Shown here in pieces: positions 885 to 40,213 of a stretch of DNA of 46,098 nt (the first letter of the stretch is position 1; each line of letters begins with the position of its first letter). Position numbers and translations under genes: made by a program. The stretch is taken from positions 1-46,098 of the forward strand of contig JBJCIZ010000698.1 in NCBI GenBank assembly GCA_051294375.1, read 5' to 3'. Under the pieces are notes generated by a model, which worked only from the letters and a program-made list of their open reading frames with translations, had not been told where the DNA came from and did not search any database. The DNA comes from Paraspadella gotoi (taxonomy: Eukaryota; Animalia; Chaetognatha).

Positions 885-1538
885 TTAATTCATTGGTGTT
901 AAATTAAGGTGTGAATGTACTTTTAAAGAGTGATTTACGGATTTTTGAAGTTTTCTTTGTTTGATCACGAGGGTGATGATGATGACTGTTAGGATCACGC
1001 AACCAGAGAATCCCGAAGCGGCTAATGCGTTAGAAATTTGGAGTGCTTTAGTGTGAATGTTGAGTTGTTGTGTTTTATTGTTTGGGGGAAACATTGATGT
1101 GTGAATGCGTGAAGTTGGAGTGGATTTAGCGATTACAGGGTTTTGGGTTAAATTGGGGATAAATTTGCTGGTTATCGGTGTGGTTGGGAAAGGTAATTCG
1201 GTTTTGTTAAGGGTTGTGTGTTTATCTGAATAAGGAACGGTCCAGAGTTCGGTAGTGTCTTCAGATCTGGAGTGAGAAGTGAGTTCGATGTCCGCGGTGG
1301 TTTTGAGAGGTGAAAGTCCGGTGCTTGAGTCATCAGTTGATAGGGAAAGTTCGGTTGTCGCGATGGTAGAGAGTAACGAGGTCGAAGTAGAGGAGAGTTG
1401 GCTCGTGTTTCTTTCAAGATTGTCCACAATGCATTTTAATTTAAGCGGATTTTGGTTGCAAGCGCTATATCGTTCCCATATTGATATCGAGCAAAACCGA
1501 GCTGCTGTAGCTAAGCAGATTATCGCTATTTGATTCAT
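885..1538 (-). CDS. Type I membrane protein: signal-peptide-like N-terminus, Ser/Thr-rich mucin-like ectodomain, C-terminal transmembrane helix (217 aa)
   Basis: Hydrophobic N-terminus MNQIAIICLATAA; long S/T/P-rich stretch with NxS/T sequons; hydrophobic GFSGCVILTVIIITLVI followed by basic KQRK. Confidence 0.7.
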   Translation of the reverse strand: MNQIAIICLATAARFCSISIWERYSACNQNPLKLKCIVDNLERNTSQLSSTSTSLLSTIATTELSLSTDDSSTGLSPLKTTADIELTSHSRSEDTTELWTVPYSDKHTTLNKTELPFPTTPITSKFIPNLTQNPVIAKSTPTSRIHTSMFPPNNKTQQLNIHTKALQISNALAASGFSGCVILTVIIITLVIKQRKLQKSVNHSLKVHSHLNLTPMN

Positions 1539-2149
1539 AGTAATAATTGTTTCTATATTTTTCCACGAGAAAATAATGATTCAGGAAAAAAAACGGAGAA
1601 AGGCAAGAAGCTGACTTTGGTGACAATATGATTTAATGAGGTGAAACAGTCTTTTCTTTCTTTCTTTCTCTTTTTCCTTTTTTTCTTTTTTCTTGAGATG
1701 TAGCTGATGTGTCCATTTAGATTTTGTGGTCAGACAAAATTATATATTAAGTTCTAAAGCTAGCTTAATCATAAGAATTGTTGACTCGTTTAGTTGAAAT
1801 TGTTTCTATTAGGTTAAATTGAAGATATCGGTTTAAATTTACATTCGTTTTTTAATCTATTTATTTAAAGAACTAAAAGCGATGTTGAAACGCATTGAAA
1901 ATGACATTTATTTTAAAAAGAATTATTATTTTCTCTTCTTATCAGTTTTTTCGGCGTCGTGTGCGATATAGGGTCGACTGTGAAGAATGGGTTGAAAGGT
2001 GTTGGGGGAGGGGTAGAGGGGTTAAAAGAAAAAAGTTTAAAAATTCTTGAATGAGTGTAGAAAAAAATGTATGAAGAAAAAATAATCTGGGTTTGGGAGT
2101 GTAAGTTTTATCGCTTTATCTGTTCTTGTTTACCTTTTTTGTCCCCATT

Positions 2150-2405
2150 TTATTTCTTTCGCTTTCCCTTTCCCTTACGAGCTCCTTTTCTCGATGTTTT
2201 GAATGATTTTTTGGCGATCGATCCTCCCTTAATTGAAATTTGATATGTTATAGAGCTAATATGTAATAAAAAAAATATTTTGTTTTAATTTTACCTTTTT
2301 CTTTTTTTTTCGTCTTTTGCTTTTTGCTCTCCTTTGTTGAGCGCCTTGTTTGGTTGCGAGTTGGCGAGCAAGGGCGGCCATGTTCAGATTCTCTGCTCTG
2401 TACAT
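2150..2405 (-). CDS. Small Lys/Arg-rich protein (62 aa, 2 exons), candidate virion core/DNA-condensing protein
   Basis: Exons 2405-2295 and 2227-2150 with a phase-0 GT..AG intron 2294-2228 give MYRAENLNMAALARQLATKQGAQQRRAKSKRRKKKKK|GGSIAKKSFKTSRKGARKGKGKRKK*. Absent from the ORF track. Function is inference. Confidence 0.55.
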
Positions 2406-2433
2406 GACCGCGGCCGAAAGTGGTGATTAAGGA

Positions 2434-2619
2434 TTAAGGCGTGATTGTGAGATTTAATTTAGGTGGAACTTGCCGATTTACGTGCGGGTGGTGGCTTTCG
2501 AGATTTAGAAAACTCGAAATTAGGAGACTGATCAACGCAAGAGAGAGAATGATTTTTCGAGACAGTTTTTGAATTCTTCTAAGGTTGATGCGATTCTCTT
2601 GTTGAATTTCATCCATCAC
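2434..2619 (-). CDS. Small hypothetical protein with one hydrophobic segment (~60 aa)
   Basis: Tightly packed after the protease gene; basic stretch followed by IILSLALISLLISSFL. Confidence 0.45.
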   Translation of the reverse strand: MMDEIQQENRINLRRIQKLSRKIILSLALISLLISSFLNLESHHPHVNRQVPPKLNLTITP

Positions 2620-2631: not shown

Positions 2632-3165
2632 TTAAAAATGAAATTTTTTAAAAACATATCTAATAATATGATTTTCTATTGTTTTTAACGAGTAACGCGC
2701 AAATAATGATTTGAGGTTAAAAACTGAACTTATATTTTTGCAGTGTGATATTTTTACAGCATAGTATAAGGAATGAAAACCACAAGCTTGAGATTTTTTA
2801 CTTTGAGTTCTTAGCTTTAGATTTTTTAGATTAAGCGAGTTGTTAATACAAAAATTTTCAATTGAATTTAAAACCTCGTGGTTTTCATGAATCTTGTCTA
2901 AAGAGTCAATCAGCAAGGCGATTCCTTCTGGAAATGAAATACCAAGCACGATCCAATGTCCAATTTTTTCACTTTCTTGGCTTGAAATCGTGTTAATAAA
3001 CAACACTAGTTTTTGGTTAGTTCGTTTTAAATTTATATTGGTTAGTTCATCATGAGATAAGATTAGTTTTCCTTTTAAAACTGACTTGAAGCAGATAGGG
3101 TTTGATTTTAAGATTTTTTTTAACTCCGAATCAGAGGTGACCAAAGAATTTTTTGTTAGATCCAT
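2632..3165 (-). CDS. PRO: Adenain-like (clan CE) maturation cysteine protease, intronless, 177 aa
   Basis: His-Asp-Cys order: FINT...GHWIVL...LLIDSL...TQSKKSQACGFHSLYY, including the oxyanion Gln. Directly downstream of the major capsid gene. Confidence 0.92.
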   Translation of the reverse strand: MDLTKNSLVTSDSELKKILKSNPICFKSVLKGKLILSHDELTNINLKRTNQKLVLFINTISSQESEKIGHWIVLGISFPEGIALLIDSLDKIHENHEVLNSIENFCINNSLNLKNLKLRTQSKKSQACGFHSLYYAVKISHCKNISSVFNLKSLFARYSLKTIENHIIRYVFKKFHF

Positions 3166-3166: not shown

Positions 3167-5232
3167 TTACTGGTCTAAATCGGTATCGTGAAAGACTAGT
3201 CTTCTACTGTCGATTTTGATTGAGCGACTTTGAGTGTATATAAGTATTGCGTTCAGGACGCTGGTTGTCGGCGCGTCAAATTTTAAATAGAGTTTAATAT
3301 TCCGAGTTGAGTTAATCGGTCTTTGAAGAACGTTATCCGTCGATTGGTTGATGGATTGTGAAAGTGTGAATGGCAGCATGAAATTTGTGCTGTAGAACAC
3401 TTCGCTTCCGAAACCTTTCGTTCCCTCTCTTGTCAGAAGACCAAGCAACTCTGAAAGAAAAAAAGATACGTGAAGGTTGTTGCACAAAGTTGGTTTTGGG
3501 TACTAGCAAAAAGTTGGTTCAAAGTTGTTAAAAAAAAGACCTACGCACCGATTGCATAGAGATACGAGCAGCGTCTGTTCCAGTCGTTGTCGAACATATA
3601 CCCTTCCTTATCGGCGCTCCCTCCGAGGTGAATACTTGGGATTCTTGCGTTGATTCCAACTTCAATCCATGCTTTAATTAGACCGTTTCTTGAAAATTTA
3701 AAGATATTTGTGGCTAATGAGCCGTTGAGCGTTGTATTCTTATGTAAAAGCAAAATAACAGAGGAGAAATCATCTTTTAGCGAAATATTTATGTGTTTTT
3801 CTATCACGCCTTGCTCTAAACTAAAAATCTTTGAGAATCTTGCCAAATACGAGATTTGTAACGGTTCCGTTGAAAGCTTTCTTTCAATTTTTTGTAGTAT
3901 GGATTCGCGGAGCAAGACAGCGTTTACATACAGCGTCGCGGCTGTAGGTAAAGGGGGAAATAAAAAAAAGAATTTTGTGTTAACCATCGCTAAGGATACT
4001 AGTAGTGCGACACTAAAATTCACTTTGGTTGGTTTGGTAGTTGGCTGGTAGGTTGGTTGGTCAGTCACTATCATGAGTACCATACTTGTCTAGTCACGTG
4101 GTCAATAAAAAAAAAGAAAAAAAGGTAATGTGGAAAAAAAAGTTTAAAAAAAGTAATTAACCTTTTACAACGAAGTTTGGTTTCAGTGTGGTGTCACTGG
4201 TGTAGAAATATCTTTCTCCTAACATTAAAAAAAATATTCAATGATTAGTTTACATTTTAAAACGAAAATAAAAACAAACAAAGTTTTTCTTACTTGATGT
4301 GAGATAAAACTGAATGCCAACATCGATTCCAGATGGTATTAGAGCTGACATACTCGACAAGGGAGAGAAAAATTGAAACCTAACTTTTATTAGATTTTTT
4401 TTTAATACCCTCATCGAACGACGACCCGCTCCATTTACGGGTACGTGTTTTGTAGTTGCTGTCGCACCTGTTCCAACTGTGACAGTTTTATACATGTCGG
4501 TGGTATCCTCATCATCCCCGCTTTCATCAGTGTCCTCGTCGAAAATCTCAAATTCCCTTTTTCGTTAAAAATCAGCTAATTAATTATAACAAAACCAAAA
4601 TCAAATAAAGTTAATCTCACCTCAAGAAAGTATCTCTCGACGCCTTTGAGTATTGGGTCATGTAAAGGACTCTCGCTATAAGCCCATAGTTGGTATCATA
4701 TTTTAAAAGTTGAGCTTCTCCAAGACATATCGAAAGCGATTCCACCNNNNNNNNNNTCATCGGGTTAATGGTTGTGAAGTTACGCATGTCCATGGTCATT
4801 TCTCCACCAGAGTCAGACACGACCTGAACAAAAAAAAAAATACTTTGATTTATATTTGACTTAGCATTGTGTTTCTTTAAATATAATTTATTTTGTTTAA
4901 AATAAATTTGATTAATTAACTAATAACTTGATTAGATATTTATTTTAATTAATTAAACTAATCTAATTTTATTTGATTTAGTTTCCCTCGAAAGTGAGGT
5001 CCAGAAAAATCTTTTTTGGATTCAGAAAAGCTGTTTTGTCGCTGAATCTGAAGGAGATGCTTCTCCCCCCCTTCTGAATCTCGACTGGATCTTCTGGGTT
5101 GACTCTCAGGTATGTGTTGTAGCTGATCCCGTCTTCTATGAATCTTTTGTCTGAAAGTAAAGAATCAATTTGGGGGGTCACAAATTCGAGGGGGGGGGTA
5201 AATTTTGGGATCGCTGTTGGCGGTCGAGACAT
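3167..5232 (-). CDS. MCP: Major capsid protein (Maverick double jelly-roll type), 6 exons, ~480 aa
   Basis: Approximate exons 5232-4987, 4823-4621, 4556-~4293, ~4218-4162, ~3942-3549, ~3451-3167; phases are consistent. Maverick MCP-like segments: SISFRF..FLNPKKIFLDLTFE, ALIPSGIDVGIQF, ATLYVNAV..IERKL..PLQISY and the C-terminus NIKLYLKFDAPTTSVLNAILIYTQSRSIKIDSRRLV. Intron 1 needs a non-canonical GG donor; there is one short N gap. Confidence 0.88.
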
Positions 5233-5240: not shown

Positions 5241-5534
5241 TTAGATGAAGTTTGAAGCGGTGACTTTATTGCTCTTTTTTCTGGTTTTTTTGCTGGTTTG
5301 TGGAGAAAGTTTTTCGTTGTTTTTCCGCTTTTTTTGAGTTTGTTGTTCTTTAGCTGCTTGAGTTGACTTCTTTTCGTTTGTTTTGCTTTTTGGTTTTTTC
5401 GCACCTTGCTTTTTCTCGGTTTGGTATTGTTTTTGTGATTCGTTGCTGTTTGATTCTAAGAGAGGTAAAATCAGGTTAACTAATTCACTGTTATTCGACT
5501 CTTGTCCGCGTGGAAAATTATCGTACCAATTCAT
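5241..5534 (-). CDS. Small basic hypothetical protein (~97 aa) between the penton and MCP genes
   Basis: MNWYDNF... followed by a Lys/Gln-rich tail; stop lies just before the MCP ATG. An upstream polypyrimidine+CAG suggests it may be a 3' exon. Confidence 0.5.
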   Translation of the reverse strand: MNWYDNFPRGQESNNSELVNLILPLLESNSNESQKQYQTEKKQGAKKPKSKTNEKKSTQAAKEQQTQKKRKNNEKLSPQTSKKTRKKSNKVTASNFI

Positions 5535-5663: not shown

Positions 5664-7217
5664 TTAAAGTTCCTCGATTGGCGATGGTCTGATACAAAGT
5701 GTTAAATCANNNNNNNNNNTAGGTTGGAAATAAACTCTTGAAAAAGACTCATCAAGAATTATAAGTTGAAACGCGCTGAAGAAGTTCTTTGCCCGCTTAA
5801 CCCTGTGGAACGTGCGATCCGAAGGTGATGGGTTTGATCGACAAATAAACCTTCTTGATTTATCATCCTGGGTCACTGGGTGAATGTGAAATATGTTTAA
5901 ATGTTCAAACTCAGTGTTTTTAAGACGGAGGTCTTGATGGTGACATTGATTATGAGTCAGGTCGGTTAAGAAATAAAGAATATGTGGATTAGGTGTAACA
6001 AGCGAGGGTAGCGACTGGTTTTGGTGATTGATATCATTGGTTGTTGTAGGTTCTGGTTGTTGTTTTTCTAAATTATTTTTTATTGTTATTGACACTTTTT
6101 TCTTCCTCTCTCCCCCAAGGACTTGTGACGTTTTTGTGTCAAAGAGTATCTTTATTTGGAATTGGGTGTTGATTTTTAACAGATTGTTAAAATGGAAGAT
6201 AAAGTCGCACTTGTGCGTTTCCTCGTTTAATTTCAATTCAATATAAGAATGTTTTATTTTGCTTTTCTCCTTGTTGATTGTTGATTTTATCATCTTAGCC
6301 AACGCTATCAAATCTTGATTCATTTTTTGGGTGTTTTTTAAGTTGTCTTGACTTTCGCTAGTTACCACCGCTTCATCTGTGATGATTAGAATTCCAGATT
6401 TACTGAGCCAGTTGATTATATTCTGAGTTAAGATATTGTTTTTTGAGGTCGAAGGGGTTGTATCCACTTTGGAAAATTTTTGATTGTGAAAGGATTGGAA
6501 ATCTATTATCTTAACAATGGTCGATTTTCTCTCTGAGATTGGTTTAAAATATGACGAGTCTTTTAATAGCAAGTTTTCCTTTTCCTCAGTCATTACCGAA
6601 CCAGGATCATATTGCCACTCTGACTTGTTGTTGTTGTTGTTGTTGTTCCTTAAAAGGTATGTGTCAATGACTTTGCGCATTACCTCTCTCGTGTAGACAG
6701 AGCAGTCAAGATAAAAATTTATTAAAGCGATATCATTTGTTGAAAAATTATTTGATGGTTCGTGTTTTATATTGTTTCTTAGAATGTCACAATCAGTGAT
6801 TATTGGGAGCAAGCGAGTAAGTATATATCTGTCGAGATTTTTAGTTAAAAAGCTGTTTAAAAAGTTGATAGCTATTTTTCGGTCGGGTGTGGAGAATTGA
6901 GGTACTGTGACATCGATTGTAGACAGATTTAAGGGTGTGATATCATTAGGAGTTATAACCAGGTTGGGTCTGGCGATTTGTTCAGGAACAGTTAGATTTA
7001 TTGAAATAGGCTCCAATCCTGAGAATGATAACGGTAAGTTGCTGATGCTGATATTTTCAGCCGCCAGTTCAGCAATTAAACTCTTCATGTAAAGTATTTG
7101 TTCATTTAAGTTCACTTGAGAATTAAGCAGTAGATGAAGATTACCCGCTGAAGATATCATTGACACTGAAGAATTTTCGATTTCTCTGTTAGAGACGTTT
7201 AGCATGTAGATGCTCAT
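5664..7217 (-). CDS. Minor capsid/penton-like protein (517 aa, longer than usual)
   Basis: Sits between integrase and MCP. Penton-like termini: N-terminal IYMLNVSN and ISISNLP; C-terminal HILYFLTDL...FHRV...FQLIILDESFSRVYF...LTLCIRP. Confidence 0.72.
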   Translation of the reverse strand: MSIYMLNVSNREIENSSVSMISSAGNLHLLLNSQVNLNEQILYMKSLIAELAAENISISNLPLSFSGLEPISINLTVPEQIARPNLVITPNDITPLNLSTIDVTVPQFSTPDRKIAINFLNSFLTKNLDRYILTRLLPIITDCDILRNNIKHEPSNNFSTNDIALINFYLDCSVYTREVMRKVIDTYLLRNNNNNNNKSEWQYDPGSVMTEEKENLLLKDSSYFKPISERKSTIVKIIDFQSFHNQKFSKVDTTPSTSKNNILTQNIINWLSKSGILIITDEAVVTSESQDNLKNTQKMNQDLIALAKMIKSTINKEKSKIKHSYIELKLNEETHKCDFIFHFNNLLKINTQFQIKILFDTKTSQVLGGERKKKVSITIKNNLEKQQPEPTTTNDINHQNQSLPSLVTPNPHILYFLTDLTHNQCHHQDLRLKNTEFEHLNIFHIHPVTQDDKSRRFICRSNPSPSDRTFHRVKRAKNFFSAFQLIILDESFSRVYFQPXXXXDLTLCIRPSPIEEL

Positions 7218-7228: not shown

Positions 7229-8887
7229 TTAAATTATGTAATTTTTCTTTAAGTGGTTTTTAAAGTTATCACTGTAGCTCAAAATGCCTTTTCCAAACAA
7301 TCGCACAAAGGATTTTAAAGTCTCTGGTGATGCTTTTTCTCGGTTTCCTGACTTTTCTATCTCATAAACAATTTTTTCTCTGCCTTTTATAGTTTTACCG
7401 CTTCTCAAAGAGGTTGTATTATCGCTTATGATTTCCACGTCAAGAACCTTGATCGTCTCACTAGCGTTGGGTAAGGTGGATTGCTTGATTGTTTCTGATG
7501 CTTTTGTCTTGTCCTCATTCGAAAAATAATCCTCATATACTTTTGTGAGTTCGAAAGCATAGAAAAATCTGTGTTTTGACGAATCTATTTCTTTCAGGGT
7601 GTACCTAAATGGGTAGTACTTTGTATCTATTTTTTCGATGGTGTAAATTTTTTTAGAATATCGTGGATACAGAATTGACACTTCCTTTGTAATTTTAGGT
7701 TTTACAAGTTGAAGTAGGACTTTATCCCCAATTTGAAGTTTTTGTTGCTCTGGTAGTTTACGATAAATATTTTCCGCGATCTCTTGATGTCTGAAAAACT
7801 TTTTGAGTCGTTCCTTCGTGACAATGTGGTCAATGTGACTATCAAACTGTATTTCAAGAGGGGAATATCCACAACCAAAAGTTGATGATTTTCTATTGTT
7901 GTAGGTATTTTGGACAATCTAAATTTACAAAAAGGAAAAGAAAACCCAAAATTATTCATTTTTCTCTCTTTTAGGTTGAGGTGAATAACAATATGAATTA
8001 TCAGTTTACCTTGATTATGTGTCGGTAATCAAAAGTCTTAAACTCTAATAAGTAAGCAAAAAAAAGTTGTTTCACTGTGAATGGTGATAACAACTAACGT
8101 TATTTAAAATAAAAACAAAATAATACAAAAATATTTGATCGTCAAAAAATCATAACGCTAACCTGTTCGAATGCAGCGTTCAACCAATGAAATTTTTGGA
8201 CTTGTACTTGTTGATACAACATATTTAACGATATTAAACTCTTCCTTTAAATGTAATAAAAACGAAGCCTTAAATTCGCTCCCGCTGATATAAACAAAAG
8301 GCTTAAATCATTTTACAATATATTAGGATTTAAAAAAAAAGACTAACCGATCAGAGGCGAAAAATTTGTAGTCAGGGTAGTTGAATTCTTTAAGACATAT
8401 CCTAAGACTCTTCAGAGTTGAGCTTGCCTTAGCATCCTTTTGTAAATTCAGTGAAACTGCTCGCGAGTGAGCATCCATTAGGACGCATATTACCTTTTTT
8501 AAAAAAACAAGTAATGTATTGTCGTTTTTGTTTTATATTTACTTTTATATATATTTAATTAACCTGAAAACCTCCATTATAACGTTTTATCTGTGGTAAA
8601 AAAGCAAGGTCCCCAGCTAAGATCTTCCCCGATTGGTAAGTTAAATAGGGTCGAAATGAAAATGGTCGCTTTCCACCGAGTCTACGTTGTTGTTTGGCGC
8701 GACTTAATGATTCGATATGGCGCTTGAATGCATATATATCTTGAATTGTTACATGTGTCAAAAGAGCATGACGTTTTGCTTTGGTGTAAATTTCTTTGAC
8801 ACTTTTTTGTAAAAAAATTTCACTGCCTGGTGTTCTATAAAGATCCCTTAACAGGCGAATTGTGTTTTTTTGTTTCTCAGTCGCCAT
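7229..8887 (-). CDS. INT: Retroviral-type (RVE) integrase, 5 exons
   Basis: Spliced product: ILAGDLAFL...GGFQ|VICVLMDAHSR...FFASDR|GSEFK...KISLVERCIRT|VKQ...IIK|IVQNTYNNRKSS...SPLE...KLQIGDKV...PRYSKKIYTI. Exactly 35 residues lie between the second Asp and the Glu (DD35E). All four introns are GT..AG with matching phases. Confidence 0.93.
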
Positions 8888-8983: not shown

Positions 8984-10276
8984 TTATTTTCTTTTTATAC
9001 AGATACTCCGTATCGCTAAGCATGGAATGTCTTTGGGTTTCAGGTTTGAGCGAGAGTAAATTTCTGAAAGAAGCATTTTCTCTTTTGTTGAAAAAGGAGT
9101 AACGAGTCCATCTGCGCTGTGATACGTTAAAAACTTGAACAATTCATTTCGCGAGAGTGAAAAAGAAGCAATAATTTTGATCATCAGCATTTGAGCTTTT
9201 TCCTTTCCATTTTTATCTACGAAGGTGAGTGAATCGCTTCTTTGCTTGATTTTTTTATCTTTAGAGTTTGCGAGCACCTTCAAGATTTGATCCGCGCAAT
9301 GCTTTATTCTCCTTTTCGCGAATCCATCAAGCGTATCCGCATTTGCCTTAAAAGTCTGGATGATGTCGTTGGCGGCAATACTTGGTCTCTTTACACTTAG
9401 TTTATATCTTCTTGATGACTTGGTATTGAGATTTTCTTTCGAGTCATCGCTTAAGGCTTTCTCCTCCTCCTCCTCCTCTTCCTCCTCTCCCCCTTCCTCA
9501 TACTCTTCTTCCTCATCCTCCTCCTCTCTCATCTCCACCTCCTCATCATCCTCATTTTCTCCCACACCCCCATTTCCGCTGGAATCGTCTTCTCCGTCAA
9601 CCTCGAGCTCTCCGTCTTCGCTTTCCTCGTCGCTTGGGTCAGCATCGTTATTTCCATCTGACGATGGGAGAGAGCTATATTCACTGTCGTTATCGCTCTC
9701 AGGCATTCTAGTTTCACTTTCGTTTCGATTTCGCGGTGGTTTCGCGTCATTGTCCCCTTGTCCGGCGCCAGAGAGATGGGGGTGATTGGCTGGGGGTAAA
9801 ACGAGTCTTTCCTTGGTTAACATTTGCCTTCTTTTCCAGTCGCTTAGTTCTGATCTTATCAACTCGGATTTGGTTTGGAGCGAAAAGTTTTTATTACTTA
9901 GAATTTTTTTAATCGTTTTGTCCAAGTCCGAGTTGGTTGTCTTTTGTTTTAACTTCATTCCTCCTTTTTTTTCTTTTTTTTCCTCCTTTCTCTCCTCCTC
10001 GAGCAACATCGCGCTAGTGCCGGGACTCACGTGATTCGGTTCCATTTCTTCACTCTTTTTAGCCTCTTTTTGAGTTGTCAGATAATTTTTTTCGAGGTCG
10101 ATGTGTTTCAATAATAATGAGATAATCCTTAGAAGATCGAACTGATGTATGAGGAAATGCCTGGGAAAAAAAGAAAAACAGAGATGTAGGAGGAGGGTGA
10201 GAGCTACAGTATAGAAAAGTAAGGCGATAAATTTTGTACAGGTATCCAATTTTATTCTTAAAAATAATTTTTTCAA
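8984..10276 (-). CDS. Acidic low-complexity Maverick accessory protein; 5' end uncertain (probably spliced, or starting at MEPNH)
   Basis: Long ORF with a central D/E tract. The segment LDKTIKKILSNKNFSLQTKSELIRSEL resembles, from memory only, a helical motif in the ORF that precedes integrase in other Mavericks. Confidence 0.65.
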   Translation of the reverse strand: MKKLFLRIKLDTCTKFIALLFYTVALTLLLHLCFSFFPRHFLIHQFDLLRIISLLLKHIDLEKNYLTTQKEAKKSEEMEPNHVSPGTSAMLLEEERKEEKKEKKGGMKLKQKTTNSDLDKTIKKILSNKNFSLQTKSELIRSELSDWKRRQMLTKERLVLPPANHPHLSGAGQGDNDAKPPRNRNESETRMPESDNDSEYSSLPSSDGNNDADPSDEESEDGELEVDGEDDSSGNGGVGENEDDEEVEMREEEDEEEEYEEGGEEEEEEEEEKALSDDSKENLNTKSSRRYKLSVKRPSIAANDIIQTFKANADTLDGFAKRRIKHCADQILKVLANSKDKKIKQRSDSLTFVDKNGKEKAQMLMIKIIASFSLSRNELFKFLTYHSADGLVTPFSTKEKMLLSEIYSRSNLKPKDIPCLAIRSICIKRK

Positions 10277-10753
10277 ACTATTTCATATCTTAAAAATAAA
10301 TAAAATAATAAAATAAGATCGATTTTATCCTACCGAGATAATAGAGAATCTCACTAGTTTTTCTTTCTTTCTTTCTTTCTTTCTTTTTACCTGTAGACGT
10401 TGTTTGAGGGTGACACACTGGTGTTTGCTGTCGTCGTTGTTGTTTCTTGCAGGTCTTTTCTTAGTAACCTGAGTCTATTCTCGTTTTCTTCGTCTAGCAT
10501 TTTGTTTTGGGTTTTTTTGCCCCCTTTCTCTCATCGAGATAAAATGATTTAAGACAGAATTTTTCTTACTTTTTTTATTTTTTCTTACTCTCAACTTTAT
10601 TTATTTTTTGTTTCTTTTATTTTGAAAGGGTTTATTGTCACACTTTGAACACAATGAAATTTTTTTAACACTCGTGAGAAAAAAAAACTGAGCTGGAATT
10701 AAAAAAAAAAAGAAGAGAGAAATGAACACTTTAGAGTCAAAAGTAAAACTAAA

Positions 10754-13700: not shown

Positions 13701-14158
13701 CAGAGGTCTTTCTGAAAAGTTGCCCGGACATTGGGACATCTTGCTTCATAACATCTTGGTAGCTCGCCATCATCATGGCTAGAAAGTTGAACAAAGCTTG
13801 AGTGTAAATGTGTTACAGCTTTCATCGACTGGGCATGGTTCAAGTATGGAATGCGGGCAACGCGCGGAGTGTCGTCGAGTCCTAAGTCAACTTTTAAATC
13901 TATGCCGGATAACTTTAGGGGGATCGCTGTGGGAAAAACACTGAGATGACCCGTCAGTTTCTGGTAAGGGTGAGGGCGAGACGTATCCTTACGATCGTAG
14001 TAATAACAAGGAATTTCGCGAGGGTAAAAATTGAGGTATGATTCTAGTGGTGATTCCAGATTTTGAGCTATTGACAATGGAATCGTTTTATCCTGATCCA
14101 GAAGCTTCGGGAATATTGGTGAAAATGGAACGGTATGTTCGCTAGAGAAAAGATCCAT
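10754..14158 (-). CDS. Orphan protein, 7 exons, ~800 aa, with Cys/His clusters
   Basis: Approximate exons 14158-13295, 13213-13018, 12883-12557, 12134-11935, 11833-11748, 11583-11486, 11375-10754. They join via six GT..AG introns in consistent phases and unify ORF-track fragments 13235, 13013, 12531, 11744, 11482 and 10754. Confidence 0.72.
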
Positions 14159-14603
14159 TTTTTTTTTTTTTTAGTTTTTATTTTTCAAAAATTGTTTGCT
14201 TCCTCTAGCTGATGTGTTAAGACAGTAACCGGTAAAAACGGGTGATTGTCTGTAGTGTTGAGATTAAAAATATTGGTTCTGTCGCGAGAGAAGTAGGGAA
14301 AAAAGTGGTGGAAAAAAGAATTATTTTCTTTTTCTGCTTTTTCGGGATACGATGCGATACAATGCGAAAAAACATTTCCTCGTCTTATCGAGACTGGGGC
14401 TTCATCGTTTTTTTTTTTTTTTTTTTTTTTTGATCTTGTTAGCTTCCCGTTATCTTTCAACGTCGTCGTCGTCGTTGTCTGCCCCAGCCTCCTCGTCGTC
14501 GTCGATATTCTTTTCCCCCTTGGATTTTTTTTTCTTTTCTGGTCAGTCATTCTTCTCTTCTCGTCTCTCTCTCTCTCTCTCTCATTCCCAATTTTTTATT
14601 TTT

Positions 14604-16502: not shown

Positions 16503-16543
<41 letters not shown>

Positions 16544-16591
16544 AATGGGAAGGGGGGGGGGTGAAATGTAAAGAATAAAGTCAATCGGTCG

Positions 16592-29788: not shown

Positions 29789-30053
29789 TAGATATTCATT
29801 TATAGTCAATTTATGTCTTAAAACCTACTACTCTCTCTTTCTCCTCATAATTCGAATTGCGAGTTTTTGTTTATATATTTCTTTTATACTCTGTAGCTGA
29901 ATGAGTTCTTTTTGTTTTTGTTTACAAGGAAGGTAACAAAAAATCTTTTAAAAAAAAGAAAAAAAAACTTATTCTGTCATCGCGAAAATTTCTCCTCTCT
30001 CTCTCTCTCTATCTCCCATTTTTCCTTTTTCTCCACTTACCCTTTCTTTGAAA

Positions 30054-30534
30054 ATGGAAAACAAGTCGAAATACACGATCAACCGCGAAAGACTTCAAAG
30101 AAAATTAAAAAATATAACAAACCAAATGGAAGAGTTGACAAAGAACCTGCATAACCTTATCAGACAAACTAATAGAATCGCGACTAGTCTCGCTAGATTA
30201 GAATCGAAGGAACTTGCAAGACGGAAAGGAAAAAAAAGACAAATCGCCATTGTAAGACCATCAAAAAAAGCCAATGGGACGCGCTATGTGACGCCAGGCG
30301 GATCAGGTTGTTTTTTTTTTTTAATTAAAAAAGAACAACATAACAATCGCTAAAACCCAACCTCTTTTTTTTCTTTTATAATACAATTCAACTTTTTTTT
30401 AACCCAATCGACTCGCCTTCCAAGTCATCCATGTCCTTGATAACCGAGCCACCCCAAGCCCACCAACCCAGCCTCAACCACAACCACAAACCCAACCTTC
30501 AACATCTAGCCAAAACTTAATTGTTTTAGATTAG
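30054..30534 (+). CDS. Small coiled-coil/basic protein with Pro/Gln-rich tail, 2 exons (~120 aa)
   Basis: Heptad pattern LQRKLKNITNQMEELTKNLHNLIRQTNRIATSLARLE. Phase-1 intron 30307-30424 leads to VIHVLDNRATPSPPTQPQPQPQTQPSTSSQNLIVLD*. Confidence 0.6.
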
Positions 30535-30687: not shown

Positions 30688-33600
30688 ATGGAGGGTTCTG
30701 ATGACTCTGAGAATGAATTGCTCCAAGAACTTTTTGAGAACCCCCCCCTTGAAAACATTGACGAATCCACCCTGAGAATCGAGCAGTACCTCACCGACGA
30801 CATGTACACCGGCGTGGCTTCAAAAATTTGTTTTCTGAGACACCAAGACGATGATGAAAAACGCTTCCGCTATGAGACTGAGGTTCTTATATATCTCAAT
30901 TTCCATATAAGACCTTTTCTCAGAGAGCTCCTCTCGAGAGAGGAAGACGATCGACCTTATAAGTACCTTATTTGGATTGCTGGCGGTGAGATTTGTTTTT
31001 TTGTTTGTTTTTTTCTTTCTTTTTTTTTTTGTCTTTTNNNNNNNNNNATTTATTTTATTTTTGCTTTTTGTTCTTTTTCCCACTTGTGGGCACATCATAT
31101 TTTATATAGTCACACTAACCATCAAAAAGAAAGAGAAAATGGAAAAAAAACTTTTTTTCTTTTCTTTTCAGAAGTGCAAATGGCGAAAGCGTTGGATAGA
31201 GACTGTCAAATGAGCCACTGGTGTTCCTTTCGAAATCAATACTGGTGTCAGTTTTTTGAAGAAGATACAGAGACCTGTATCGACAGAATGATCAATGAGT
31301 TTCTAATTCACACCACAGAGCATTTGGAAACTCTAAGAACACTAGAGAGTGGATGGACTTTTTTATATTTCAAAAGATTCCATGTTAGATACGTGAGGGC
31401 GACGTCCACCAATTTAATTAGATATGGTGCGAATAGTAAAGCAGATCGACAGTTCGTCAAGGATCTACAACCAATCTTCCTCAAAAACATTGCCGATCCA
31501 AACAAATATTATTTGTTTGAGGAAACAGCCAACAAATGTGTATTATATTCCATTGGTATAGCCTTAGAAACCACATTTGGTTCGACACCAAGTAGCCGCA
31601 TCGGTAAAAAACATCTCAAAAACATAGTCTCCAAAATAAACATAGGCGATTTTTTTTCCTTCAATAGCAAAGGGATCAATATCAATGACTTCTCCAAGCT
31701 TGAGAAAATAAATTCCCCTCTCCCATCCAATCTAGTAGCGGTTTACCCCTCACTAGTCAATTGTAAGGGGTTTTCTTTAAATGTATTCAAGATACAAAAG
31801 GCCAGAAATTGTGAGGCATACTCGGTGTTCCCCATCGCTTTAAGCTCTCACCATCGCGACAAAGACTTCTTTCAAATCGATCTCTTAGTAGACACCAATG
31901 AATTGAGAAAAACTGAGGATCGGGTAAAACCACCTCTGAATGAGAGTGAGCACATTCTTCTTATCTTATCTCTCCCAAGGTTACTAATGTCTTTTGAGTC
32001 GAATATTCAAAAAAAGTTTAACACATCTAAACGACAGTTTGTCTGTCGTGAATGTATCTCTGTCTTCACCCATGGAGAAAGCTATTCAAGCCACATCACC
32101 ATCTGTCGGGCTTTTGGTAACGGTGGTACAGGGCGTCGGAAATGTGATAATAAAATTGTACACCTACCCTTTGTGAAGAACAAGTTGACAGGAAAGGAGG
32201 AAAAAAACACTGTGAGGTTCCGAAGGGGGTGGTTATACAAGAAACTTAAACCACTTTATTTTTCTTGTATAGATTTTGAAGCTAAAACTATTCCCATTGA
32301 GAGAGTTCAAAACTCGACCATCCCACCACCCAAATCAGCTGTCTTTGAGCAAAGAGTTTTAGCGTACTCACTCGCCCACAAGTCACTGTATGAAGAAAAG
32401 TTCCCCCTCCCAGAAAACTTACAAAACCCACGCTGTAGGTTTTTAGACGAAAGGGTTGAGAGTGAAACAGATTTCTTCATACAGTTACTGTTGACTATAA
32501 GAGAAGACATGTGGCTCTTACACCAACACCTGCTCGAGTCTCTTCAGACGGACACGGGTACTCCAAAGATAGAAGAGTTAAACCTTGAGGATAGACTTCG
32601 CTTCGAACTGCAAACTGAGTGTGACCTTTGCGGCATTACCTTTGGGACATTAGTGAAGAACGAATTAACCAATAAGTTCTATACAGCTTGCAAAAGCTTA
32701 GACCACTGTCATTTGAGTCAGGGTAAAGCGGAACTAAGATTTGTGAGCTGTCAAGCTTGCAATATATCCCTGGCATTTGGGTTTCTCCCAAATAAAATAA
32801 AAAACACACTCTACGCTCACAACCTAGCCAAATATGACGCCGTATTCATCCTTCGCGGGGTATTGATGGGGTCTAACCATAGGGTAAACGTATCTGATGA
32901 CCCTATAGAGAAACCCATCCTTGCCCCTATAATAAAAAACACCCCTAAAATCGTTTTTAAAGATGCTCAAACAGCCCTATCCATTCAGTTTAAGTTCTCT
33001 TGCCCTAACCCTACAAGTTGTCCGAAATGTCGTTACACATCAAAAGAAAGAGAGGAAATCGCTAAAATCAATGGCGTTACTCCAACTTGTGCCTTTGATC
33101 GTTCTGTGTTGATTAAAGATAGTCTGTTTCTGGTTAGTTTTCCTTTGTCAAAAATAATTTCAGACACTCACCAATCAACCGTAAAACATGGTTTATCTAC
33201 AAAGAATGTCTTTTCATCGACTCACCAATTTGTCAAAAAACATAATTACAGTGATTCGCAGTTTGAATTTTTCATTCAGCAAAAAACCCCAATGCCTTTC
33301 GAGATCATAGATAGTTATGAGAGTCTTGTAAACACAACGCAAATACCTACCATTGAGAAGTTCACGTCTGCATTGAGTGGTAGAAGCGAACTCTCTCTTT
33401 CAGACTACAATGTTTTTGTAAAAGTTTGGACTGAACTAGGGGTTGAGAACCTGCTTCAACTACTGAGATTCTACGTAAACTTTGACGTTCTGCTCCTCCT
33501 TGACTGTCTAAATTATTATTTTCAAGAGTTACACATCACGACCGGGTTCCATCCTATCTACTTCGAGGTGTGGTCTCTTACAAATTTTTTTCTAGTGTTT

Positions 33601-36482
33601 GGTGATTGTTGTGGTCACAAGCTCTGGTTTGTGGCACCCATGATGGTTGATTCTGATTGAGTGCAAGGTCGACTGAATCAAACCTAAGCAAGCTGATATT
33701 TTTACATTTTTCTTATATCCATGTTCAGACTATATCAACCCTGGCTATGACTTCAATGTTATACAACACCAAGGATCCAGTGAACACGGATAAAACAATT
33801 AGACTGGAGTTACTTGACGCAGAAACACACAATATATTTCAAAGCACTTTGGTAATTTTTTCTTTTAATAACTATAATTATTATGCAGAATTCAAGTAAA
33901 CTAAGTGGTTAAAGTAAGATAAAGTAAAGTAAAAGTAACATTCTAAACAAAGAAAGAATATGCAAAGATTGAAAGAAAGAAAAAAGTTTTAAAAAAAACT
34001 AATCTTATAGGTCGGCGGGTTCTCAGCGATTTTTGGTCACATTGCTCGACTCGATGCGGATCCACCCGACGAATTCTCGACTGCTTCATATTTGGATGCG
34101 AATGGTAGGTCTTTACCATGTCTTTTTCTTCTTCACACTCACTCATTTCTTCTCCATGCTTTCTACAGCCCTCTATCCATTCGTTTTTTGCTCGTTCATC
34201 CCCTTTTCGGGGTTCCGTGTAATTGACCAGTCCACTGATCCAACAGCATTTAATTTCCTTTCTGAAAAATTAATGCGATGCGACATAGAATTTTTCAATG
34301 AACACCTTACCGCGAATAACACTGGTTATTTGTTTGTGGTCATGACGCAAACAGAGAGGGAAGACGCAGTCAAGTTAAACTTGGATCTATGCTGTTTCCC
34401 CCAGCTAACAAAAGTCAAAACAAAAGATCTGTCACACGACCAGATTAAAGCGGCCAAAGAACTTAAAAGGAAGCTTGATCAGGAACCAGCAAAACTTGTG
34501 TCGGACATTTACTGTAAGGAACAGATAATCTCGGATTTTGTGGAAAATCTACTGTATCTCATTTTGCTCCATAATGTGAAGGTGACAAGGGTAATCAAAA
34601 TCGTCACCTTCAAGTCCTACCAATATTTAAAACCATACATGGAGCACCTTCAGAGAGAAAGGAGTAAAGCTAAGAGCAATATCACCTCGAAGCTGATCAA
34701 ATCGCTAGGTGGGTTGCTTTTATAACCACACAATAAATAAATAAATTAATTAATAAATTAATAAATAAATTCATTTATCAGGTAATAGCGTAAATGGCAA
34801 ATGTCATCAAAATACTGCTAAATATATTAATGCTAGCTTGGCTATCGGAAAAGAAAAGTTCCTTGCGGAGGTTCAAAAGGACAATTTTTTTGATTTTCAA
34901 AAATTATCGGATAACGCAGTGGTAATCATGAAAGATGGTAAATCCATGAAATGCAAGGTAAATAACAATTTACCGTTGAGTATAAACTTTTTCACATCTC
35001 TCATGTTTGACAGTCCATTGATTGATTTTCTTTTTCTTAATTTTTCCCCTTAGAATCCGATTTACATCTCTTCAAAGATATACAGCGGTTCGAAATATTA
35101 CTTATGGCGCTGTTACTATCTCTTTGCGGCGAGAATGGCATACATAGGATCCTTTAACACACGACTTATGCTTACAGGTTTTTCTTTCACATCATTAGAG
35201 TAGAAGCTGTAAGGAGGAGGACCCAAGCTTTTTTTCCACTGTGAACAACACCTAAAACATAACCCAAATCCCTTAAGCTTTTACCCAATCTCTTTTTTAT
35301 AAACTTTAACTAAATTCCTAACCCTTTTCCCCCTTAGCTCACCCCTACCACATGATTTCTAACCAAATCCAAATCCCTTAACCTCACACGCTGATCTCCA
35401 CTGACAAAAACCCTCATACCCACCCGTTACAAAAGATACCGACTCACTCCTCACATCTCAAGTAAAATTGAGGACAAAGATCGAACAAATAGAACTGGAG
35501 AAGGCGAAAANNNNNNNNNNCCAAGTGGATTTTTCCTCCACTTGGACGGGTCAAAGATGGAGTAATATTTATTTTCAAACTTATGCGAATCATTTGGACT
35601 TCTCATGCTTCAACAAGGTGATCACTTTCACTGTCATGGTTTTTTAGTTGCCCCGCGAGTACTCTATAAGTACTCTATAAGTCACTTTTCGGTTGGTCGG
35701 TCCGTCGGTATGTCTGTCCCTCAGTCTGTACCACTTACGTTAAAAACACTTAAAACTTGCCTATAGGTGCTCATTTGTTAAAAATCAAATCTAAGGGATG
35801 ACTTGCACCATCTTTTTGTTTTTTTAATGATAAGTAAAATGAAAAGTGATGCGGTGCAACACCTTGGAATAACCCTTCCTTGTTTTAGGACTCCTTTATC
35901 TACAAATGCTTACGCGACAAGAACGCCAAACTATTGAAAGTTATGCTCGAATTTATTGGGGAATGCACTCGAAACCGGGAGGGTAAATGGAAAGACGAAC
36001 TTGGGTCTACACCTATCAAGGTAACCTTTTTTTGAGCATACTCGTATATCTCTAATTTAAATTCTTAATTNNNNNNNNNNNNNNNNNNNNNNNCCCCCCC
36101 CCATTTTCCCTAGACGGTGTATTGCACCTCCCCGAAACAATACGCGCTTGTTCAATTCCCAAAAGACGCCAAGTTCCCGTACAGCGCTAACGACGAGGAG
36201 GAGACGATGAGCGTCGCAAAGAGCAAAGGGGTTAAAAGAAATGTTTTCTCAAACACTATCAGAGCTGGGGACTATGCTAAAATCATTAAAGATTGTAAAT
36301 CTGTAAGAAGAGTAACTCAACATTCAATAAGGAGAAGAAACCAAAAACTATATATAGTTAAAGAAGAGAAAAAACTTTTAACCTGCTTTACTAGTAAACG
36401 GATTTTTTTTGAAAAACATAACGATGGTCGTTTTTACTTCTCCTTTCCACTATACATGAAAGATATGGTTAACAAATGTTGA
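30688..36482 (+). CDS. pPolB: Protein-primed family B DNA polymerase (pPolB), 10 exons
   Basis: Exons start at 30688, 31172, 33729, 34011, 34169, 34782, 35054, 35436, 35889 and 36114. Motifs: ExoI CIDFEA, ExoII YAHNLAKYD, IKDSL, ExoIII FYVNFDVLLL, motif A YLDAN|ALYP, motif B KLIKSL|GNSVNGK, NPIYISSKIYSGSK, motif C LMLT|DTDSLL, LDFS, GKWKDE, SPKQY, KSKGVK. Exon 8 contains an N gap. Confidence 0.95.
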
Positions 36483-36603: not shown

Positions 36604-38660
36604 ATGTCAAGTCAAGTCCAAACTCAGCGGTGGATCGATTTTTTTGCACAACCTCTTGGTGAGCAATTGCGATTTCTTTCTTAGTAGCCCACACGCTAAT
36701 AAACCTAATTTTTGTAAAACCTTGCACAAAAATTATTCACAACTTTAACTACAGATCAGGATGACTTTGATACAATAAGATTGACGACGGACAGAATAGC
36801 CCTCTTCAAGGAGGTGAACAAGGAACCGATCGTAGAGATCAAAAGAATCGATCAAAGCCTCAATAAAAATTGGAGGGAGGTGAGTTTAGAAAATATGTTT
36901 AAACCGCTAATTTAACTGACCCATTTACACTTACATTATTTGTAAATTAAATTCCCCTTTCCCCCTCCACCCCTCATCCACAGCACGGGTTCACAACAGA
37001 AGACTGTAAAACCACGTGGTCACTGCCGGTGTGGATGCTCGTTAGCCTCGTGGAGCACAAGGCCTTTCAGCTACTCCAAGCATCAATCAACAACATAACA
37101 GAAGAAACGAGAAAGCTGGAGGGTCATCATGATGAGTCATACCTCCGCAGCATCTGCGATGTAATTCACAATATGAAGGGTTCTAAACAATATAACAGAA
37201 TAATTCTCGTGTTATTTTTTCAATTTTTTCCATCTTAAGAAACTCGCCCTCCCACGGACAAGAATCGGTTCCACAGCATTCGCGATGGAGGTTGTCTATG
37301 AGGAAGAAAAACCCATGGTCAACGGATCAAAGGTTTATGAGTGCTCTTACTTCCTCCCCTCTCTCCCTTTCACAACCCCTTAATATATACATAACCACAT
37401 TACTATACTTTAAACTTATTAAACTCCTTTTCCATACTCACCTCTTTTGCCACTGAGGAGAGACCAAGTCAGAACATACCCTTCAACTAGTTACCTATCT
37501 CCCCAGGTTCCAAAAGGATACTTCGCCCAAATGCGCCGCATCATCGAGCTACCACACAACAACCATGACGTGGTTTTCGTGAGCCAGTTTGACCAGGGCT
37601 CCCCAGGTATAATGATAAAAAAGATTAGAAGCTCAAACTAATATTTTTTTCATATTCAAAGTGAAAATACATGTAAATAAACTAACTTTTTCTCTTACAT
37701 TTAGGGATGAAGGCTCAACTCCACGTCTGGTCACGGGTGTACCAGGCGCTGTTCTGTCTCCCATATACGGGGAGACACGACCAACGGGACTTCTTAAAAA
37801 GTCAGGAAAACGCGGTAATTTTCCTTTTTCTTTATTACCCAATCTAGCCCCAAAACGTCAAACCTTGTAAACCTGTAAACTTTAAAACCCACTTAGGACC
37901 AGGATCAGGCAACAACTTCTTCTTCCGTTTGGTTTCCCAAACAAAACAAAACTCCACCCATAGAGAGAGAAGTGCCGGAACCATATAGGAGGAATTTTTT
38001 CCAGGACCTGCTATCACTCGTCATTGAAAATCACATCGCGGGTTGTCGCAAAAATGATTGCATGACGTGCCAAACATGTCATAAGAATTCGACGAAAAAC
38101 TGGGATGAGTAAGTACTATATCTTTTTCTTCTCATTAGTTATTTTAATCTTGCATGTTTTTCAAACCACGACCATATTTTCTACTTCCAAGATACAATTT
38201 CACCTATCCTTATATTGTATGTATATATAAACCATATCAACAAAATGTTATACTTTCAGGACACATCGTGGGGCCAACCTGGTCAAGGAATATGGTGGCA
38301 AATCCATTGTCGACCTCATTGAGGGGAGAGGATGGGTACATAACAAAGGTGCATTTACTTGTTATATTAGTTTTTAATATAACAGGCTGACTATACATAT
38401 TATTTATATTAATTTATACTTTCATTTCACTCTCAGTCGTCACCGCAAACTGTGGTACAACTTCAGCCAACAGCGTCAACGAAACACCGCTCGACCGAAT
38501 GCGACGACGCCAGAGGAGGAAGCGCGTGAGCGTCGACGCTGAGACGCTACTCTCTCCTGACCAAAAATCTGATAAGGGTTTTAAAACCCCAAGAAAAAAT
38601 CAGACTGAAGAGATTGAAGAGGATGACGACGACATCGAAGTTTACACTCAGAAACTATGA
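36604..38660 (+). CDS. Multi-exon orphan gene downstream of pPolB; middle exons not fully resolved
   Basis: The first four exons join in phase (MSSQVQTQRWIDFFAQPL|DQDDFDTIRL...NWRE|HGFTTEDCKTTW...SICD|KLALPR). A later exon has HIAGCRKNDCMTCQTCH. The last exon ends EIEEDDDDIEVYTQKL* followed by AATAAA. Confidence 0.62.
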
Positions 38661-39127
38661 AATCACGATGTGACAGTAAACTGAAAAATAAATTCATTCT
38701 TTAAGCTTGACGTAGTAAACTTTTCAACCATAATAATCATTGTCCTTAACATGATTCAACTTTGACGTAGCAAACCACGAGCCTTAATAATTTTTATCTT
38801 CAGCGCGAGTTCTATGATTTTCCATCTGTTTTTTCAGCTAGCCTAATCCCACATTTCTACAGCTTAACTGTATAATTTTACTTTTTCTGTACACGTGTTC
38901 TTTTGCAATTTTCCCATTTTTCTTAATAAATTCGTAAACCAATATAATTTTTTTAATTTCACACAACAGTCAAAAAATAAAAGCTTGGTACAATTACACT
39001 TTCCCAAAAAAGGAAAAAAGAATCATAAAAAGTATACTAATCTAGATAAGCTTTAAAAATGGATTACAAAAGCATCAAAGTATCAATCATTAATAAAACG
39101 CAAGTAGAATAAATACGTTTCAAAAAC

Positions 39128-39440
39128 TTTTTTTATTAAGCATGAATTCTCAAAAGAGAATTTTTTTTATTAAAATACAAATCCTCAAAAGAGAATTTTT
39201 TATTAAAGCACGAAATCTCTCAAAAGAGAAAAAAAAGCATAAAATTCTCGGACTTGAAAAAATAAATTCAAAAAGAAAATTATTTTATTAAAGCACGAAT
39301 TCTCAAAGAGGAATTTTTTTTTATTAAAGCACGAGTTCTCAAAGAGAAAAAAACTTGAGAAATGAAACCCTTGAATCTTGTAAGAGAAAAAAAATAACAA
39401 ATTTTTCCATAATTAAAGCACGAATTCTCAAAAGAGAGAA
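39128..39440 (+). repeat. Array of ~6 imperfect ~33-bp repeats, consensus TTTTATTAAAGCACGAATTCTCAAAAGAGAA
   Basis: Copies begin near 39128, 39161, 39195, 39283, 39313 and 39411, with irregular spacing. Confidence 0.85.
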
Positions 39441-39651
39441 CCTAAAGAGGTTTAAAAAAAAACAAAAAACCCTAACGACCCCTTTTTTTTAAACCCTTTC
39501 TAAATCCCCCTTAAACCCAAAATAAAACAAACCTAGGACCCTAAACCTAACCCTAACCTTTAAAACCCAAAAACATTTACCCCCTAAAACAAACTAAAGC
39601 CCCCTACCCCGTCCGCTAACCCTTAAACCTCCCCCTAACCTAACCTAACCC

Positions 39652-40213
39652 TCACTCCCCATTCCCATAGCGGACGGGGGCACGACGAATGCGGATTGAT
39701 CGTCGTGGTTGCGGCACCACCGCGACAGGAGCCGCGTCCTCCTCCGACGAAGACGAAGAAGGCGACGCCTCAGACGCTTCGGAACGATCCTAAATAAATA
39801 TTTTGTATAAATAAATAAAAATGTTGTATAAAAAATATTTTGTGTTAATTTCTTTCTTTTCGTTTTAGGATTAGCGAAAACAAAGTTTATTTTTTTGTTA
39901 GACAGCACAACGATTTTATAAACAAAATAAAAAGTTCTGAATTCTCTACACATTTTTAAATTATTTTTCTCACCAACTCACCCGACTCCGAATCCGAGTC
40001 GGAAGACGACGCCGGCGGAGCTGGCGCGACCCGAGCTGCCAACGGAGCGGCTGCTGGACGCGGTGGCGCTGGCACGGCCTGCGGTGCCGGTGGGACTGGA
40101 ACCCCAACCGGCCGTGGTGGCGGTTGCCCACGAGGGAATCGCATGAGGTGGGGGGGCGGGTAACCCACATCCCTACCCCCCGCAATCCTCCGACACACCC
40201 AACGAAGAGCCAT
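39652..40213 (-). CDS. Pro/Ala/Ser-rich small protein, 2 exons (125 aa); possible extra 5' exon at ~40295-40655
   Basis: GC-rich exons 40213-39974 and 39789-39652 flank an AT-rich phase-0 GT..AG intron. The product ends PRRSIRIRRAPVRYGNGE*. Confidence 0.55.

Follow-up and report, generated by a model that had tools for sequence, protein, structure and literature searches.

The 46,098-nucleotide stretch analysed here (hereafter the window; contig JBJCIZ010000698.1, assembly GCA_051294375.1) comes from the chaetognath Paraspadella gotoi and carries what is, judged from its sequence, a Maverick/polintovirus; the gene set by itself would also point to an invertebrate host. We consider it likely that U2-type introns interrupt the genes for its polymerase (pPolB), integrase, packaging ATPase and predicted major capsid protein (MCP), as well as three accessory genes, and that the lineage to which it belongs diversified while carrying introns. 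Contigs from a likely RNA run show transcription of the element and, for the accessory gene orfR at least, splicing at all eight modelled sites. To a broader proposition we give an even chance: that a widespread lineage of large polintoviruses has host-like intron density in its pPolB, integrase, ATPase and capsid genes, inherits introns and turns them over, spreads from host to host and escapes splice-blind screens, with this copy as a transcribed member.

Exon models were translated with an X at every junction. They place 37 introns in seven genes: nine in pPolB, five in MCP, four each in the integrase and the ATPase, six in an orphan gene of ~800 amino acids, one in a gene at the so-called PZ position and eight in orfR. 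The four core genes hold 22 of the 37. Over 17 kb of coding sequence the spliced models of all seven genes contain no internal stop, and each closes with a terminal stop. Intron length has a median of 102 nt (range 63–1615), the total is at least 6.7 kb, the density is 2.15 per kb of coding sequence, and GC content is 0.33 in introns versus 0.41 in exons. Donors are GT in 36 of 37 cases and acceptors AG in every case; A occupies donor position +4 in 26 introns and G position +5 in 21, while G is the last base of 33 of the 37 exons, 22 of which finish in AG. By these signals the introns are of the U2-type GT–AG spliceosomal class. Microsatellites fill some of them. An all-versus-all BLAST of the 37 returned four weak pairs, either short or in microsatellite-rich introns; with no repeat family among them, nothing suggests that introners spread here recently in a burst. 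Three introns lie inside catalytic motifs, namely pPolB intron 7 in DTDS and ATPase introns 1 and 2 in Walker A and Walker B. The protease, the penton candidate and a membrane-protein gene are intronless. The first-pass annotation of this DNA had listed introns in pPolB, MCP, integrase, ATPase, the orphan and several small genes. The larger genes give open frames at nine, five, four, four and six introns, in agreement with the numbers listed there, but spliced models of the small genes left of 2630 do not. Its statements that splicing restores the catalytic sites and that the protease needs no splicing agree with our models: the motifs are in place, and the protease is one open exon.

The most direct evidence for splicing comes from public sequencing runs. 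The pPolB region is present in nine of them, all from one organism and three studies, with a share of 0.84–1.00. Eight are DNA runs from five samples; run X9 is likely RNA, a label that we infer. None of the nine is recorded as RNA. Contigs of X9 and of three DNA runs were compared over 34790–39100, where contig depth does not equal copy number. orfR (36604..38660, plus strand) is a conserved accessory gene of ~400 amino acids with nine exons and introns at 36659–36754, 36880–36983, 37161–37239, 37333–37506, 37607–37704, 37815–37896, 38109–38259 and 38349–38436. The contigs of X9 skip all eight, with skipped lengths of 96, 104, 79, 174, 98, 82, 151 and 88 nt that equal the modelled ones, and the three DNA runs contain none of these joints. 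The exon model was fixed prior to this comparison; an earlier one with seven internal stops had been dropped, and two sites had been changed before reads were consulted. Random nearby GT/AG picks gave an open orfR frame in 4 of 20000 trials. One X9 contig (36099–36658) connects the last pPolB exon with exon 1 of orfR and ends at the first orfR donor; a contig spanning both genes is not proof of one transcript.

pPolB (30688..36482, plus strand) is modelled with 10 exons and ~1480 amino acids, including an HNH/endonuclease-VII-like zinc insertion. Its introns lie at 30986–31171, 33568–33728, 33852–34010, 34105–34168, 34709–34781, 34958–35053, 35178–35435 (intron 7, inside DTDS), 35618–35888 and 36021–36113. 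A search with exon 2 yielded 387 relatives at E-values up to 0.001, and pPolB is 26–44% identical to the 150 best of these, as befits the divergent lineage that had been proposed; a word-based protein search with the same exon returned 0 matches. The structural model of exon 2 (pLDDT 83.8) is closest in fold to the polymerases of bidna-like elements, adintoviruses, MELD elements and adenoviruses, with E-values down to 3e-13, and its top structural match in the PDB is phi29 polymerase (E 0.018). Among eight relatives scanned for PF03175, two (P0001 and P0019) scored above the cut-off and one (P0007) below it. The complete protein matches the pPolB of the adintovirus-like element L008 with an E-value of 2.8e-22. 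All nine junctions are bridged by at least one relative with an offset of no more than one residue. At seven of them the bridging relative lacks that intron; introns 7 and 8 are bridged only by the metagenomic contig L001, which has both.

For the remaining core genes the informative reference was L016 (2064–11277), a compact Maverick from IMG/VR with uninterrupted core open reading frames (ORFs). Ten window proteins were compared with its proteins, with z scores taken over 300 shuffles. The scores were 23 for pPolB, 8.9 for the integrase, 8.3 for the protease, 6.1 for MCP and 4.9 for the ATPase, and each of these was the top score among the ten. The RVE (DDE) integrase (7229..8887, minus strand) has five exons, ~450 amino acids and introns at 8563–8494, 8347–8285, 8162–8075 and 8009–7919. 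Against a profile of seven Maverick integrases the X-joined model scores 57.9 bits, compared with 20.9 for the best single exon and 8.4 for the best of 2000 shuffles; the reference Maverick integrases match Pfam rve. The adenain-like cysteine protease (2632..3165, minus strand; 177 amino acids) scores 98 against that of L016, compared with 67 for the best of 300 shuffles. Its His, Gln and Cys motif blocks align with the reference, its match to Pfam Peptidase_C48 (E 0.024) lies below the cut-off, and the L016 protease matches Peptidase_C5. On this evidence we regard the identities of pPolB, integrase and protease as well supported.

The identities of the major capsid protein and the ATPase are moderately supported. 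MCP (3167..5232, minus strand) is modelled with six exons, ~480 amino acids and introns at 4986–4824, 4620–4557, 4293–4219, 4161–3942 and 3548–3451. It matches the L016 MCP end to end: the X-joined model scores 135, compared with at most 69 for single exons and at most 75 for unspliced frames, so that the match requires splicing. The true exon order ranks fifth of 720 in score. The L016 MCP in turn matches a PF21738-type profile (E 4e-27), and its model folds like the Sputnik and PBCV-1 capsids, from an alignment that included known capsid rows. The window MCP is therefore predicted, with moderate confidence and transitively through L016, to be a double jelly-roll capsid protein. Since the L016 MCP has no Pfam match but does have the double jelly-roll fold, Pfam misses this capsid group. 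A word-based protein search with MCP exon 5 gave 0 matches, and the ESM Atlas held no usable match to it. The A32/FtsK-type ATPase (14185..18786, minus strand; five exons, ~780 amino acids) has introns at 18111–16497 (splitting Walker A), 15334–15190 (splitting Walker B), 14940–14865 and 14707–14279. It scores 86 against the L016 ATPase, which matches Pox_A32 and Adeno_IVa2; the best of 300 shuffles reached 74. The protein carries a 225-residue N-terminal extension and, between Walker A and B, ~300 charged low-complexity residues (16496–15335, minus strand), and is ~780 amino acids long versus ~205 in L016. With insect- and cnidarian-type profiles for MCP, penton, protease and ATPase no window gene was detected; only the closer reference L016 recovered these genes, the penton excepted.

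The gene order argues in the same direction. The genes fall into two divergent modules, one covering 18786–885 of the minus strand and the other 27017–38660 of the plus strand. The minus-strand module reads ATPase, ~800-residue orphan, PZ-position gene, integrase, penton candidate, small basic ORF, MCP, protease and membrane protein; the plus-strand module reads ~890-residue orphan, small ORF, pPolB and orfR. From the ATPase to the protease, the order is that of the intronless L016 (ATPase, orphan, PZ position, integrase, penton position, small ORF, MCP, protease), with intergenic gaps of 1–253 nt in the window. The labels PZ and penton are position-based names. At the penton position, between integrase and MCP as in L016, lies an intronless ORF of ~517 amino acids (5664..7217, minus strand), which is a candidate minor capsid gene by gene order alone and found no match in the ESM Atlas; between it and MCP, a small basic ORF (5241..5534, minus strand) sits where L016 also has a small ORF. 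Another candidate for the minor capsid, 10847–12169, was rejected, as it is the 3′ part of the ~800-residue orphan. That the element would be hidden from ORF-based screens, as predicted at first pass, holds in the window: none of its 28 ORFs reaches the curated Pfam cut-off, Pfam and NCBIfam together return nothing at cut-off for ORFs and single exons, and a PDB sequence search with the window proteins gave no useful match.

The case for introns as a trait of the lineage is built on relatives of pPolB. A locus search found none in viral contigs or prokaryote genomes and one metagenome locus, L001; the matches L003, L004, L007, L009 and L011 were unrelated, and L014 and L015 furnished no capsid reference. 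On L015, a contig filed under a giant-virus bin, a pPolB-like ORF (2258–5866, minus strand) stands without nearby capsid genes. L001 is a 6.4-kb contig on which, as in the window, an orfR homolog (22% identity, E 1.7e-17) comes after pPolB. Its pPolB is 33% identical to that of the window (430 of 1300 aligned residues) and has four GT–AG introns. Two of them coincide in codon and phase with window introns 7 and 8; a third lies two bases from window intron 4, and the fourth is unique to L001, which lacks window introns 2, 3, 5, 6 and 9. Two exact matches in four would arise by chance with a probability of 2.5e-5 under uniform sites, and of 0.01 should only 5% of sites be usable. Not one of the 150 best relatives extends to motif C, and 136 of them end in a short unaligned tail; many of these tails read like intron sequence. 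The ends cluster at a few sites (one with 14, others with 10 and 8), and within the same motifs the end point varies slightly among several sites. In a quick pPolB tree, of the kind that the first-pass annotation had suggested, the window and 17 relatives fall on one side of a branch opposite seven canonical pPolBs (SH-aLRT 99). By its polymerase the element is a member of a divergent lineage, and its introns look like a trait of that wider lineage rather than of this copy alone. The L001 orfR homolog (4608–6305, plus strand) has about five introns, two of them within 1–3 alignment columns of window introns; there is no clear exact match, and four acceptor choices for the first intron read open.

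These observations can be assembled into the following mechanism. The proteins of the element would be made only after transcription by host RNA polymerase II and splicing by the spliceosome, of which the transcription of the element and the splicing of orfR, as seen in X9, would be an instance. Removal of the introns from pPolB and integrase would give contiguous proteins, as homology indicates, with introns inside catalytic motifs, and the core genes would be spliced in the same way as orfR. Some introns may predate this insertion, having been inherited via protein-primed replication and RVE-mediated integration, and others may have been gained or lost along the way.

Several results weigh against this reading. 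The RNA evidence comes from a single run of a single study, and its RNA label is a guess. The junction-read check proposed at first pass succeeded for orfR in X9; for pPolB introns 6–9, X9 contains none of the four joints (intron 9 lacks X9 cover); one X9 contig reads unspliced through pPolB intron 6. The proposed fold check gave a similarly divided outcome. The pPolB exon 2 model matches known pPolBs, and the hidden Markov model and HH tests of the window MCP were not significant, which leaves the support for the capsid assignment transitive. MCP intron 1 is the sole intron with a non-GT donor, and neither GT nor GC is found nearby in the assembly. The penton candidate does not rise above shuffles against six reference pentons (z −0.8 to 0.2). 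No terminal inverted repeat (TIR) was found, as comparison of 38700–46098 with 1–19460 gave no inverted match. Sharing of introns is seen with L001, the one relative compared as DNA; the search for relatives used exon 2 alone, and contig ends could equally truncate the 150 compared. The tree left out 133 of these 150, took rows picked by similarity to the window and used a quick method.

The same results bear on the state of this copy. Open coding sequence over 17 kb, catalytic motifs in place and transcription point to function; weighing against an active virus are the irregular donor in MCP, the high-copy repeat that pPolB intron 8 contains, the lack of element ends and the lack of diverged copies in the contig rows of the four runs compared over 34790–39100. 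The description of the element as seemingly intact lacks support, given that donor, the host repeat, the missing TIRs and a penton z score near zero, and so does the suggestion that it may still form virions. The repeat (35654..35886) is a host interspersed element with a summed contig depth of 130757 in run X1, versus ~260 beside it, and with dozens of loose-ended contigs in all four runs compared. BLAST within the window found no second copy; short GGTC/GGTT-rich tracts at 4030–4090, 16581–16600 and 19285–19310 resemble it by eye. Outside the repeat, long contigs with 2–5 substitutions cover the compared stretch, and two other samples show 4–5 substitutions per 2.3–3.0 kb. The insertion may be recent, or it may be fixed and domesticated.

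That it is a single long-fixed insertion, with introns gained after integration and now an expressed but immobile domesticated host locus, seems to us unlikely. Such a locus would fit the nine carrying runs from one organism in three studies, the long contigs without a diverged family in the rows compared, the host repeat in pPolB intron 8, the microsatellites in some introns, the low-complexity insert of the ATPase, the irregular capsid donor and the lack of a visible TIR. It sits poorly with integrase, pPolB, ATPase, protease and capsid genes that are all open and tightly packed. It also does not account for L001, which at 33% identity keeps the pPolB–orfR order and shares intron sites, nor for the similarly cut appearance of most relatives. 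Domestication may hold for this copy while the claim for the lineage stands.

We find it rather improbable that the lineage is merely intron-prone, with independent gains at proto-splice sites and with the L001 matches as parallel gains. The excess of G at exon ends noted above makes parallel gain at such sites possible and counts against common inheritance. Most positions also differ between the window and L001, and the relatives end at several sites. However, two exact matches in four are improbable even with only 5% of sites usable, and no intron family points to a recent introner burst.

Two further explanations are barely credible. A decayed Maverick fossil, in which insertions merely mimic introns, recalls the degraded Mavericks of PMC8097293, where, according to the available part of that paper, gene predictors call large insertions introns; the assembly also has gaps and a duplication. 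Eight exact RNA joints out of eight already refute this for orfR, and the open coding sequence and canonical splice signals (36 of 37) speak against it for the rest. An unintegrated virus, free or episomal, whose DNA was assembled together with that of the host would suit a right flank without a clear host gene and the absence of a visible integration junction, but the element is present in all eight DNA runs listed, from five samples, and carries both a high-copy host repeat and an integrase.

We return to the reading of an intron-bearing lineage and compare it with known systems, citing papers as far as their available parts extend. Like animal Mavericks (PMC8097293 and 10.1101/2022.07.12.499685), the element combines pPolB, RVE integrase, A32-type ATPase, adenain-like protease and a predicted double jelly-roll MCP in the order integrase, minor-capsid position, small ORF, MCP and protease, and, as in cane toad Mavericks, pPolB lies on the opposite strand and points away. 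Intact vertebrate Mavericks are described as 12.7–24.6 kb long and without introns (PMC8097293), and absence of introns in core ORFs together with a length of 13–25 kb served there to call elements intact. With 22 core-gene introns and at least 31 kb, the window element does not fit that description; it differs further from animal Mavericks in its total of 37 modelled introns and its several orphan genes, and no TIR was seen within the window. Nematode Maverick core genes are likewise given as intronless, with introns confined to cargo genes (10.1101/2022.07.12.499685), and the authors of a large screen chose a gene caller made for prokaryotes because, as they state, endogenous viruses lack introns (PMC10120064). 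The consulted text of PMC12220804, PMC10748475, PMC8502044, PMC11244446, PMC5718144, 10.64898/2026.10.13.758929 and 10.1101/2022.07.28.501842 shows no spliceosomal introns in Maverick core genes.

The closest and, as far as the accessible text shows, partial precedent is PMC12166617, which describes introners inside full-length dinoflagellate eupolintoviral elements, mostly gained after integration. Introns inside a Maverick-like element are common to both systems. Unlike those introners, which are repeated transposon families, the 37 introns form no repeat family when compared within the window; those of orfR are seen spliced, and some sites are common to a 33%-identical element. The first-pass annotation had allowed that an already described intron-rich family would remove the novelty. 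Full-text searches, which covered few subscription journals and no supplements, where intron-bearing elements could be listed, returned no paper on an intron-rich Maverick lineage. We nonetheless rate the interest of the element lower than that annotation did, because intactness, mobility and core-gene splicing lack demonstration and introns have this partial precedent.

L016 and the adintovirus-like elements L002, L005, L006, L008, L010, L012 and L013 share with the window a homologous pPolB with endonuclease-VII-like insertion and homologous integrase, ATPase, protease and MCP, and L016 also has the identical gene order. The ORFs of L016 are compact and uninterrupted; the window pPolB falls with its relatives on a separate long branch. 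Adenoviruses have a related pPolB, protease and packaging ATPase and likewise depend on the host spliceosome. They lack an integrase, and they splice leaders and alternative 3′ ends onto core ORFs that are mostly uninterrupted, whereas the window introns cut core coding regions at host-like density. What is new here is a known machinery and gene order with host-like intron density in core genes, with direct evidence of splicing for one gene and with introns shared with a distant relative. If this is true, surveys that take intact to mean intronless will have filed such a lineage as decayed or missed it, and the diversity of integrating DNA viruses is undercounted. Elements at 33% identity that share some intron sites and differ at others, together with intronless outgroups, would offer an uncommon opportunity to study how introns are gained and lost. 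The question also arises how at least 6.7 kb of introns can be accommodated in a packaged genome.

The length of the element depends on a 6.8-kb duplication, already reported at first pass and present in the assembly (19463–26225 versus 26251–33027, 98.85% identical). The first copy (19463..26225) breaks off within exon 2 of pPolB, where a gap of 25 N follows (26226–26250). Between the copies there are 7 substitutions and 19 indels; 17 of the indels involve a single base, mostly missing from copy 1, and they are densest near the gap. The duplication is probably an assembly artefact. Without it the element measures 31 kb from 885 to 38660. The 32.5 kb obtained from 885 to 40213, and with it the first-pass figure of at least 32 kb, depends on positions that are not demonstrated boundaries. 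Neither end was located in the window; the left one probably lies outside it, and on the right the element may extend past 40213.

Among the accessory genes, the ~800-residue orphan (10754..14158, minus strand) has seven exons and exclusively GT–AG introns (13294–13214, 13017–12884, 12555–12135, 11934–11833, 11747–11585 and 11485–11376) and belongs to no family in Pfam or NCBIfam. The acidic low-complexity gene at the PZ position (8984..10500, minus strand; intron 10390–10161) shows no significant similarity to reference PZ-position proteins. On the plus strand, a large orphan ORF (27017..29788; ~890 amino acids from the first Met) has four CxxC pairs and a charged low-complexity tail and found no family in Pfam (searched with the copy-1 ORF) or NCBIfam. 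It is followed by a small basic ORF (29952..30353) whose duplicate has only sub-threshold Pfam matches. The intronless gene at 885..1538 (minus strand, 217 amino acids) has no Pfam or NCBIfam family and encodes a predicted type I membrane protein with a hydrophobic N-terminus, a Ser/Thr-rich ectodomain (39% S+T over residues 40–150) and a C-terminal transmembrane helix (hydropathy peak 2.42 at residue 174). It is mucin-like, lies next to the capsid module and is much shorter than the 866-residue nematode Maverick fusogen.

Beyond orfR lies a loose array of ~35-bp repeats (39128..39430), possibly a subterminal region, and then small GC-rich ORFs on both strands with intron-like AT-rich stretches between them (39640–40620). 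The right flank (41400–46098) contains intron-like signals and short frames with many stops, and no host gene was recognised in it. An imperfect palindrome (66%) at 26319–26600, also at 19530–19812, occupies the AT-rich region between the divergent modules and is possibly a promoter region or a small host transposon. Pyrimidine tracts ending in AG lie at or just before the start codons of integrase (8887), ATPase (18798) and pPolB (30688), and minus-strand genes abut at four places with gaps of 1–26 nt; these arrangements could reflect a long transcript that undergoes leader splicing or trans-splicing. Runs of 10 N at 4747, 5710, 10830, 15415 and 35511 all lie within exons and keep the reading frame, and so look like base-for-base masks rather than gaps of undefined length.

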